Below are positions 24,788 to 26,281 of a stretch of DNA of 39,543 bases, one piece after another. A program made the position numbers and the translations under genes. Each line of letters opens with the position of its first letter. The stretch's first letter is position 1. Location of the stretch: the IMG/VR virus record IMGVR_UViG_2541047868_000004; one strand, given 5' to 3'. The notes beneath the pieces are model-generated. The model did not search any database and was not told the DNA's origin. It worked only from the letters and a program-made list of their open reading frames with translations. This DNA is from a virus. Lineage: Duplodnaviria; Heunggongvirae; Uroviricota; Caudoviricetes.

Positions 24788-24927
24788 ACGTCCTCCTTCG
24801 TCTCTGGCAGCGGGAAATTACCTACTGGCGACCGCTCACATCTGATACACCATTGGTGCCAATAAGGTTGATTTGGCCGGAATCGATAATCGTCTTTGCT
24901 TTCTCCGCAGCGGTAGCAGTGTTTCAT
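24754..24927 (-). CDS. ninD: NinD-like zinc-ribbon protein
   Basis: 57 aa from internal Met of ORF 24754..24984 ([18 protein letters not shown]…CIRCE…); ATG overlaps ninB stop (ATGA). Confidence 0.6.
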
Positions 24928-25349
24928 GCGGCGTCTCCAAACCTCGCTTTCCATTCCAGTGCTAACCGGGCTTCGTCTGACCACTTAACGCCGCGCTCTG
25001 TACCGAATGCCTGTATAAGCTCTAATAGCTCCGCAAACTCGCTTACACGCATCCTGCTGGTTGACTGGCCTATTACCACGAAGCCATTCCCGGAAAGGTT
25101 AGGCACCACGTCCTGCTGCTTTAATGCTGCGGTAAACACACACTTCCAGCTTTCTGCATCCAGCCAGCGACCATGCCATTCAACCTGACGAGAGACGTCA
25201 CCTAAGCAGGCCCATAGCTTCCTGTTTTGGTCTAAGCTGCGGTTGCGCTGCTTAAACTCGACAATGATGTCTAAATCGCATGTCCTAAGATACTGAATGG
25301 CGTTATATCTTATAGATTCATTAGTAAGGTGATATTTGACACATTTCAT
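24924..25349 (-). CDS. ninB: NinB recombination protein (full length, divergent N-terminal 30 residues)
   Basis: From residue ~30 (…[28 protein letters not shown]…) near-identical to lambda NinB; probable start ATG 25349, 1 nt after HNH stop; ORF track extends to 25436. Confidence 0.75.
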
Positions 25350-25350
25350 T

Positions 25351-25938
25351 TTAATACCTCGCAAATTCGCCGAAACATTCATCCGCTTTATTTGCATATA
25401 CTTTATGAGCTTCCTTTGGGTCATCGTAAAACCCAAGATTAACTTTCCTCTTGTTGATTACGATTTGCGCCCTCCATTTTCTTGATTTCTTATCCCATGA
25501 AACGCCTTTATATCCTGATTTGTTATTTGCCTTTTTGTTTACGTTTTGGATGTTTTGAGATCGAGTTGCCAATCTAAGATTTGCTATACGATTGTCATCC
25601 CTAACGAGATTTATGTGGTCGATATCACTTTTTGGTAGACTGCCATTCATATAGAGCCACGCCAGCCTGTGTGCCTTATAAAGTTTTCCATCGACTTTTA
25701 TTACCCAGTAGCCTTCGCTACTCTTATGCCCTGCGATATCCCCAGCATTCATTCTCTGGCATTTCTTTACTTTCCATGTGAATTTCCCTGTTAACTCATC
25801 GTAGAGAAGGACTTCTTTAAGTCTCTGCTGAGTTATTTGATTGATTGGTTTGGTTGGGTCTGGAAGGATTTGCTGTACTGCGTGAATAGCGTTTTGCTGA
25901 TGTGCTGGAGATCGAATTTCAAAGGTTATTTTTTTCAT
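25351..25938 (-). CDS. HNH-AP2 endonuclease fused in frame to a duplicated NinB N-terminal leader (32 codons)
   Basis: ATG 25938 with SD GAGAGGGAAG; N-terminus MKKITFEIRSPAHQQNAIHAVQQILPDPTKPI equals lambda NinB residues 1-32, then HNH motif (AHRLAW…DHINLVRDDNRIANLRLA) and AP2 region. Confidence 0.8.
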   Translation of the reverse strand: MKKITFEIRSPAHQQNAIHAVQQILPDPTKPINQITQQRLKEVLLYDELTGKFTWKVKKCQRMNAGDIAGHKSSEGYWVIKVDGKLYKAHRLAWLYMNGSLPKSDIDHINLVRDDNRIANLRLATRSQNIQNVNKKANNKSGYKGVSWDKKSRKWRAQIVINKRKVNLGFYDDPKEAHKVYANKADECFGEFARY

Positions 25939-25954
25939 GACTTCCCTCTCACCC

Positions 25955-25986
25955 AAATAAAAAGGCCTGCGATTACCAGCAGGCCT
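25955..25986 (-). terminator. Intrinsic terminator upstream of the ninB-leader/HNH gene
   Basis: Minus-strand AGGCCTGCTGGTAATCGCAGGCCT (8-bp perfect stem) followed by TTTTTATTT. Confidence 0.65.
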
Positions 25987-26011
25987 GTTACAAGCTCAGT
26001 GATGTAGATGG

Positions 26012-26281
26012 TCATTGCTTCATCTCCCTTTCCATTTCATCAATGTCAACATCATCAGGAAGATGGGAACAATACGCTGCTATACCATGATGATTTATCT
26101 CATACCCTTTGAACGTTACCATCTGGTGCGTAATCTCAACTTCGTTCAGGAATCCTTCATCGCATAACTGCCTGGCTATTTTCGATTTGGTCTGGATTAT
26201 TGGTAGTGCCTGTTCTTTCAAAGCGCATGATATTTGTGCATCCCATGCCTTTTCGAGAATGGCTAATTGTTTTTTATTCAT
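26012..26281 (-). CDS. Hypothetical protein between helicase and ninB
   Basis: 89-aa ORF with ATGA coupling to helicase stop. Confidence 0.45.
   Translation of the reverse strand: MNKKQLAILEKAWDAQISCALKEQALPIIQTKSKIARQLCDEGFLNEVEITHQMVTFKGYEINHHGIAAYCSHLPDDVDIDEMEREMKQ

Follow-up and report, generated by a model that had tools for sequence, protein, structure and literature searches.

Layout of the ninB region

The window analyzed here is a 39,543-nucleotide (nt) stretch of viral DNA (Caudoviricetes; IMG/VR record IMGVR_UViG_2541047868_000004), in which the recombination-mediator gene ninB (lambda orf) is joined to a gene for an HNH-AP2 endonuclease. On reading the sequence, we found all features of this insertion on the minus strand, where an earlier note on the same DNA had placed them. 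The upstream open reading frame (ORF; 25938..25351) encodes 195 amino acids (aa) followed by TAA and fuses a NinB leader in frame to the endonuclease. The leader consists of the resident ninB codons 1-32 with their native Shine-Dalgarno sequence and ATG (25843..25938), which form an N-terminal extension of the nuclease, and it matched the lambda Orf structure 1PC6 in a phmmer search (E=1e-14). The earlier note had described all 32 codons as identical to lambda NinB. The in-frame fusion stands as described, and the identity between residues 1-32 (MKKITFEIRSPAHQQNAIHAVQQILPDPTKPI) and their lambda counterpart (MKKLTFEIRSPAHQQNAIHAVQQILPDPTKPI) is 31/32, with I4 here vs L4 in lambda. The remaining codons, 33-195 plus TAA (25351..25842), were assigned by Pfam and phrog_99 (E=1e-74) to the endonuclease body, which lacks a start codon of its own.

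The nuclease stop codon (TAA, 25353..25351) is followed by a single A (25350) and then by an ATG (25349..25347), which opens a complete NinB ORF of 141 aa ending at 24924. This downstream ORF (25349..24924) is a hybrid. Its first 34 codons (25248..25349) are a replacement 5' end whose residues diverge from lambda, and the remainder (24924..25247), running from the RNRSLDQN motif to the stop codon, is a resident body of the ES18/lambda type, in which homology resumes at CGCAACCGCAGC. The product matched PF05772 (E=3e-46, profile positions 4-131), 1PC6 (E=1.6e-70), and phrog_72 (E=2e-46), bearing out the proposal that a full-length NinB restarts 1 nt after the nuclease stop. It keeps the family-invariant residues (the equivalents of R37, Q41, N42, and W46, and the DQNRKLW motif), and its structural model, with a predicted local distance difference test score (pLDDT) of 80, places helix alpha1 at residues 11-23. 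As read from the translated sequence, a full-length NinB is rebuilt by a 5' end that belongs to the nuclease cassette and joins the resident body at the conserved RNRSLDQN motif. The features of the fused ORF and of the restarted NinB are not due to chance.

A GAGG (25357..25360) within the last nuclease codons (..A R Y) lies 7 nt before the ATG at 25349 and is also kept before the downstream ninB in a divergent lineage, represented by contig L006. As a Shine-Dalgarno sequence, it would allow independent initiation besides translational coupling. We rejected readthrough or frameshifting as a means of joining the nuclease to NinB, since the spacing varies: the two ORFs are separated by 1 nt and lie in different frames here, vs 0 nt and the same frame in L006.

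We searched 50,697 phage records with the insertion region by megablast. The two flanks, without the middle, were matched by 406 records, and the middle was contained in none (0/50,697). Alignment with the uninterrupted ninB of lambda, P22, and ES18 gave the breakpoints, with the junctions set on ES18 and lambda: an insert of 595 nt (25842..25248) stands in place of 18 nt (GTAGTAACTATTCAGGAG) of the uninterrupted gene. On the left, the window is colinear with lambda and ES18 from upstream of ninA through the sequence ending in CCAACCAAACCAATC (codon 32). On the right, homology to both phages returns at CGCAACCGCAGCTTAGACC, corresponding to the RNRSLDQN motif, the most conserved part of NinB. 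The HNH-AP2 gene is therefore, as had been proposed, an in-frame insertion at ninB codon 32 that is present or absent at one precise site among homologous phages.

Pfam identified HNH_3 (PF13392) at residues 87-129 of the fused protein (~25680..25552; E=9e-17, 60.8 bits, cut-off 24.8), followed by an AP2-like domain (~25518..25363) indicated by a sub-threshold Pfam match and by the predicted structure. PHROGs divided the protein into a NinB part (phrog_72, residues 1-33) and an HNH endonuclease part (phrog_99, residues 26-194). In an alignment of 11 sequences, D107, H108, N116, N129, and N132 were invariant. The AlphaFold (AF2) model has a core at residues 35-135 with a pLDDT of ~90, and an AP2-type three-stranded sheet plus helix at residues 146-192. 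Foldseek returned I-HmuI (1u3e) as the top match (probability 1.0) and aligned the C-terminal module with the AP2 domains of plant TEM1 and ERF1 at a root-mean-square deviation of 1.4-1.5 A (27-33% identity, probability 1.0). The model thus lends support to an AP2 fold of the C-terminal domain, for which the sequence match is sub-threshold. The leader reached a pLDDT of only 45-58 and was not packed on the enzyme; a functional role for it receives no support from this structure.

In the fused ORF, in-frame ATG, GTG, or TTG codons occur only at codons 1, 63, 97, and 123, of which codon 63 lies inside the conserved domain. Because codons 2-62 hold no canonical start, the ninB ATG is the sole start that gives a complete nuclease. 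Free-standing homologues (161-170 aa) begin with M-x-(I/L)-T-x-x-R-L-K-E-L-L-H-Y-D at the position of residues 34-36 here. The reading frame leaves the ribosome-binding site and ATG of ninB as the only place where synthesis of the nuclease could begin, which would yield a leader fusion. The ratio of nonsynonymous to synonymous substitution (dN/dS) between nuclease bodies of the window type and of a lineage with 66% protein identity was 0.074, with dS saturated. Judged from its codons, the nuclease is intact and under strong purifying selection.

The RefSeq genomes of Escherichia coli TUM1880 (L002:3073-3660) and EC16 (L003:3019-3606) carry the same ORF, which the Prokaryotic Genome Annotation Pipeline (PGAP) presents as a 'partial HNH endonuclease' pseudogene and a 164- or 161-aa HNH protein starting with ATC/ATA. 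We rejected this two-gene reading as an annotation artefact that arises because a NinB leader is fused to HNH; the pieces form one continuous frame with no canonical start before codon 63. The comparison thereby flags what looks like a systematic mis-annotation of the leader-HNH fusion in RefSeq.

Upstream of ninB lies a ninA-like ORF of 26 codons (MTIYITELVTGLLVIAGLFIWVRGKS; 25935..26015, minus strand), identified by sequence reading and by the ninA annotation of P22 and ES18 at the homologous place. It joins an upstream 89-aa gene on one side and the ninB start on the other, both through ATGA overlaps. Within it, on the same strand, we located a terminator-like hairpin with a T-run (25953..25986; stem 25986..25963, T-run to ~25953), whose 8-bp stem contains 6 GC pairs (TTTTTATTT; -17 kcal/mol, z=-1.55). 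The hairpin and T-run that the earlier note had pointed out as a strong terminator are thus present. They occur equally in lambda and ES18 ahead of the uninterrupted gene, where the flanking bases carry scattered substitutions; in P22 records, a terminator is annotated at the homologous position. Because these phages carry it without the insert, the terminator is an ordinary feature of the nin operon, and we ruled it out as part of the insertion event. A weak Rfam match to Trp_leader over the ninA hairpin (25957-26048, minus strand; 19.2 bits vs a gathering score of 41, E=0.76) is taken to be a chance similarity of the terminator stem-loop. Apart from this match, Rfam gave none at E<=1, which argues against a group I intron or other RNA element; an intein is ruled out by the nuclease TAA and by the restart of NinB from its own ATG in another frame.

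A constant core between variable flanks

To describe the variation of the cassette, we compared 16 loci site by site, with positions numbered from the leader ATG. The conserved core spans nt 73-711 (25228..25866 in the window, minus strand): it begins 24 nt before the end of the leader, takes in the HNH-AP2 body and the replacement 5' end, and stops 20 nt into the ninB body. It fell into 7 haplotypes, all at least 98.7% identical. The leader showed 9 DNA haplotypes (82-100% identical), with the variable sites all at nt <=72, and the ninB body showed 8 alleles (83-100% identical to the window), with the first variable sites at nt 704-716. The upstream context took 11 different forms and the downstream context 9. 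One identical core haplotype was common to 7 loci in 6 upstream contexts, and one IMG/VR contig (3300045988_080485) equaled the window over the compared region, from -90 to +1075. In protein sequence, the large E. coli cluster P0001 (592 members) and the window differ at 6/32 leader residues and at 1/163 residues of the nuclease body. Such a pattern would arise if the core moves and the leader and ninB body belong to the recipient; from these sequence comparisons, the cassette looks mobile.

The site is empty in lambda, P22, ES18, and 2062 E. coli genomes, and filled in 8 E. coli genomes, 12 IMG/VR prophage contigs, and Salmonella contigs. Among 5426 complete E. coli genomes, 2070 carry ninB and 8 carry the cassette. 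The leader-HNH fusion does not behave as an unrelated ancestral gene, an outcome for which the earlier note had allowed: the leader varies with the local ninB allele, and by far the most sites are empty. No record of the phage GenBank collection contained the cassette DNA, the best nuclease matches being ~67% over ~200 nt in unrelated siphophages. The species-representative genomes of GTDB yielded no close relative, only a 33%-identity HNH in Pseudocitrobacter.

Positions 1-24900 of the window correspond to a P22-like podophage or prophage of E. coli, with vB_EcoP-720R6 as the best match (79% coverage, 97% identity), followed by CUS-3 and Kapi1. Two further contigs (L128:912-1827 and L129:912-1782) hold an intact 195-aa nuclease ORF followed by NinB cut to 108 and 93 aa, respectively. 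In L129, a bacterial formate/nitrite transporter gene follows, and the contig appears to be a decaying prophage remnant that still has the nuclease ORF.

The replacement 5' end was identical at 100-103 of 103 nt in 15 loci, while the leaders and ninB bodies vary. The complete E. coli genomes that contain it are the same 8 that have the nuclease, without exception, and every cluster with this N-terminus and a readable context (L007, L020, L127, L128, L129) has a 195-aa nuclease ORF ending 1 nt upstream. Searched at the protein level, the 50,697 phage records contained no copy, all matches being below 60% identity. The 34 residues are 26% identical to the lambda-type N-terminus vs 41-47% to other natural NinB lineages. 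The nearest natural N-termini are those of P0251 (Yersinia kristensenii) and P0248, together with the P0206/P0208 group, and the motif Y-x-L-x-N-E-S-I-R-x-N-A-I is common to them and the replacement. The replacement N-terminus lacks 4 residues of the lambda type in the loop that precedes strand 2. It also diverges together with HNH in the 66%-identity lineage. On these comparisons, the segment is best explained as the 5' end of a foreign ninB, brought in by the cassette.

The same architecture recurs in this second lineage (P0002; contigs L006 and L021). In L006 (4577-4614), the nuclease TGA is followed directly and in frame by the ATG of ninB, with a 0-nt spacer; the start codons read ATG AAG ACT ATT AGA TAT CAT TTG, the protein begins MKTIRYHLIDE, and the contig ends 35 nt on. 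The leader of this lineage matches an uninterrupted Cronobacter-type ninB from a metagenome (L113) over its first 27 codons, with identical protein and 97% nucleotide identity. A scan of Joint Genome Institute (JGI) metagenomes with the 66% lineage found this empty-site ninB and no further full-length member, so that the downstream ninB of the lineage is known for its first 11 codons only. In both lineages, the leader follows the local target gene, and the nuclease and the replacement 5' end diverge jointly. As judged from the two sets of sequences, the cassette architecture is old and conserved.

Proposed homing and competing explanations

We interpret the locus as a ninB coding sequence colonised by a free-standing HNH-AP2 homing-endonuclease cassette, a reading to which we assign a probability of roughly 0.7. 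When two phages infect one cell, or a phage encounters a prophage, the nuclease would cut a cassette-free ninB near codons 32-42. The break would be repaired from the cassette-bearing allele, with homology supplied on the left by the ninA/leader region and on the right by the ninB body, and repair would copy the cassette across, a process of intronless homing. The occupied allele would be protected because a divergent but equivalent version of the gene takes the place of the sequence across the insertion point; this allele has divergent sequence instead of the 18 nt that lie just right of that point. The carried replacement gene end would permit residence in a coding sequence without an intron or intein and leave ninB intact. 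In established lambda biology, the nin position is downstream of a terminator antiterminated by N/gp24. By analogy, this would imply delayed-early expression of the nuclease together with the phage recombination genes.

Several points weigh against this interpretation. Cleavage, target choice, and nuclease-driven homing, and with them every step of nuclease activity, are what we infer from the sequence. The Pfam match to AP2 (residues 141-181) scores 29.4 bits, under the gathering score of 33.3. A nuclease-free natural ninB that starts with exactly this 5' end was not found, and the foreign origin is drawn from 41-47% identity over 34 residues. The left junction differs by ~5 codons between the lineages (codon 32 vs 27), indicating that the insertion point is not perfectly fixed or was reshaped. 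The cassette is rare, occurring in 8 of the 2070 ninB-bearing complete E. coli genomes, and is not sweeping. Finally, the cassette could spread without nuclease action, through ordinary mosaic recombination of lambdoid phages at the conserved ninB flanks.

The last point can be extended to an account in which the locus is a mosaic segment shuffled by Red, Erf, or RecA at the ninB flanks, and the nuclease is either inactive on ninB or serves phage-phage competition or defence. Lambdoid nin regions are highly mosaic, N-terminal swaps without a nuclease exist (P0162, described below), the cassette frequency is low, and prophage remnants hold decaying copies with a truncated NinB behind an intact HNH (L128, L129). 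We nevertheless consider this account unlikely. The nuclease is under strong purifying selection (dN/dS 0.074) with its catalytic residues kept, and the in-frame architecture and gene position are maintained across two lineages of 66% identity, with the leader matching the local ninB each time. Moreover, on either side the conserved core stops no more than ~25 nt from the insert, as conversion tracts predict, and the combination of HNH_3 and AP2 in a protein of this size is typical of free-standing homing endonucleases. Somewhat less probable still is the model of the earlier note, in which homing duplicated the local ninB target and the downstream copy later mutated to escape cleavage. It draws on the two homologous ninB 5' segments that flank the nuclease, which are alignable (NAI motif, I-V...RNRS), and on the need of any homing endonuclease to escape self-cleavage. 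The downstream segment, however, is not derived from each local target, because it is nucleotide-identical across loci in which the leaders differ. Its resemblance to P0248, P0251, P0206, and P0208 (41-47%) rather than to the lambda-type N-terminus (26%), its shorter length by 4 residues, and its co-divergence with the nuclease in the 66% lineage point the same way. Duplication with recoding of the downstream copy is contradicted by the constancy of the 34 codons, their strict linkage to HNH, the co-divergence, and the non-lambda affinity; in a variant of this model, there may have been a single ancient duplication followed by long divergence.

A functional Orf-nuclease fusion, in which the NinB-derived N-terminus targets HNH to recombination intermediates or to NinB in a DUF968-like manner, appears highly improbable. 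Orf-like domains fused to HNH motifs have been described, and the leader contains NinB helix alpha1, a helix assigned to the dimer interface of the RAGNYA fold (PMC4118853). In the DUF968 proteins of Gram-positive phages, however, HNH is a C-terminal zinc-finger extension of a whole Orf-like domain (Curtis et al., PMC4118853). The leader here amounts to 32 of the 146 NinB residues, which is not an Orf domain; it is predicted with low confidence, unpacked on the nuclease (pLDDT 45-58), and its sequence varies with the local ninB allele, unlike that of the nuclease, which is constant. A DUF968-type fusion was ruled out, as only NinB residues 1-32 are present and PF06147 is not among the Pfam matches listed.

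Our literature search found no paper linking ninB to a homing endonuclease. The closest analogue that we found to the colonised ninB, here in mirror image, is provided by the mobile endonuclease ORFs (mORFs) of fungal mitochondria, which make 'gene hybrids' in atp6 of Allomyces macrogynus and in atp6, atp9, cox2, and nad3 of Glomus (PMC3630166). In both cases, an endonuclease ORF and a terminal segment of the invaded gene, copied from a foreign source and placed in phase, travel as a unit, the native segment is kept beside it, and the carried segment is far more divergent from the native one than close relatives are. The hybrid gene is functional there without an intron or intein; here, an intact NinB ORF is known from the sequence. 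The systems differ in that the fungal elements replace the C-terminus, whereas the 5' end is replaced here and the displaced native 5' end is the nuclease leader. The fungal enzymes are of the LAGLIDADG or GIY-YIG type rather than HNH-AP2, so that there is no kinship by descent, and the setting is the mitochondrion rather than a temperate dsDNA phage of enterobacteria, in which a bacterial restart or Shine-Dalgarno coupling comes into play.

Among phage elements, the seg and mob genes of T4 (SegF, MobE) move by intronless homing, with double-strand-break repair, co-conversion of flanking markers, and protection of the donor by target differences. Like them, the ninB cassette is a free-standing nuclease gene at a conserved phage gene, present or absent among relatives. 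The T4 genes are normally intergenic and have their own starts, whereas this nuclease lies inside an ORF, is startless and leader-fused, and brings a gene segment. Compared with other HNH-AP2 endonucleases (I-HmuI, PDB 1U3E, being the prototype of the HNH fold), it shares the domain order, size, and catalytic motif and, in the predicted structure, has an AP2-type C-terminal sheet plus helix; it differs in the 32-residue NinB-derived N-terminal extension and in an AP2 domain that is sub-threshold by sequence. In the nrdA-mobE region of Aeromonas phage Aeh1, the gene is reportedly split by an endonuclease insertion. Insertion has likewise split nrdD in FelixO1-like phages (PMC4837284). These split genes also place a homing endonuclease gene within a phage coding sequence with host function retained, but they yield two reassembling polypeptides; here, a single-chain NinB is rebuilt and the native 5' end is only a leader. 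Among phage elements, the ninB cassette is a variant of intronless homing, distinct from the split genes in that nothing is split.

A second cassette at the 3' end of ninB

One contig with the 5' cassette (L020:3590-4589; IMGVR_UViG_2751185961_000005) has a ninB body that is very different, termed type-II here, from 12 nt past the junction. This body is followed by a NUMOD4-HNH (I-HmuI-like) ORF, the last 9 residues of which (KARWGDRVA) are the tail of lambda-type NinB. The 3' arrangement combined with lambda-type codons 1-42 is common in Shiga toxin (Stx)-converting phages, with 63 phage records at >=95% identity; Stx2-converting phage 86 (gp71/gp72, L126:792-1803) is an example. In Stx phages, DNA homology to lambda ninB ends right after CGCAACCGCAGC and is back ~30 nt before the ninB stop, and the 3' nuclease ORF ends in the last 9-10 codons of the resident ninB (KARWGDR[VA]A) plus the stop. 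The Stx cassette resembles that of the window in its host gene, its design, and its junction at the same CGCAACCGCAGC (RNRS) 12-mer. It differs in nuclease subfamily, in occupying the opposite gene end, and in having its own start; it is also common and lies outside this window. With the 5' HNH-AP2 and the 3' NUMOD4-HNH arrangements both observed, ninB hosts two nuclease cassettes of the same design, one per end.

In rare genomes (L020/P0241), the two cassettes meet at the 12-nt RNRS-coding CGCAACCGCAGC. All other expressed NinB sequence there is cassette-borne, and the native 32-codon head and 9-codon tail persist solely as extensions of the two nuclease ORFs. The carried N-terminus is 41-47% identical, and the carried body 70-75%, to one set of natural type-II proteins. 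We tentatively suggest, at somewhat less than even odds, that ninB is a shared target of two complementary cassettes. The halves that they carry may derive from a single foreign type-II ninB that once moved, flanked by both nucleases, as a composite element.

Other rearrangements were seen in the nin region. The E. coli NinB P0162 (145 aa) has a different N-terminal 55 residues (MKQIYMLRNEAIRNNAIDAILSLPIDDKSPHEVHIKEPKRSNPQNRLMWALLQ) on a lambda-type body, without a nuclease, so ninB 5' ends are exchanged by other routes too. In E. coli TUM1880, an ISVsa5 (IS4-like) transposase gene lies immediately upstream of ninA and the leader (L002:1667-2875), and a further HNH gene lies between ninF and ninG (L002:4953-5519); ES18 has an 'endonuclease', gp68, in the same place (L001:2482-2700). 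The nin region looks like a hotspot for nuclease genes.

What sets the ninB cassette apart is a mirror-image gene hybrid in a bacterial virus, with an HNH-AP2 enzyme, in which the displaced native segment is used as the translational leader of the nuclease. A selfish nuclease can in this way enter a useful phage gene at almost no cost, by taking the translation start and supplying a spare front end. The cassette accounts for one class of ninB mosaics in E. coli and Salmonella prophages. With P22 and lambda genetics, a 195-aa enzyme, and a known target gene, it offers a small and tractable system for homing between temperate phages and prophages, and may yield a new sequence-specific HNH-AP2 nuclease with a likely target within ~40 bp. 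If this reading of ninB as a shared target is right, homing endonucleases would have, besides introns and inteins, a third general way to live in the coding sequences of bacterial viruses, 'bring your own gene end', and the paired cassettes would also drive ninB mosaicism across enterobacterial prophages.

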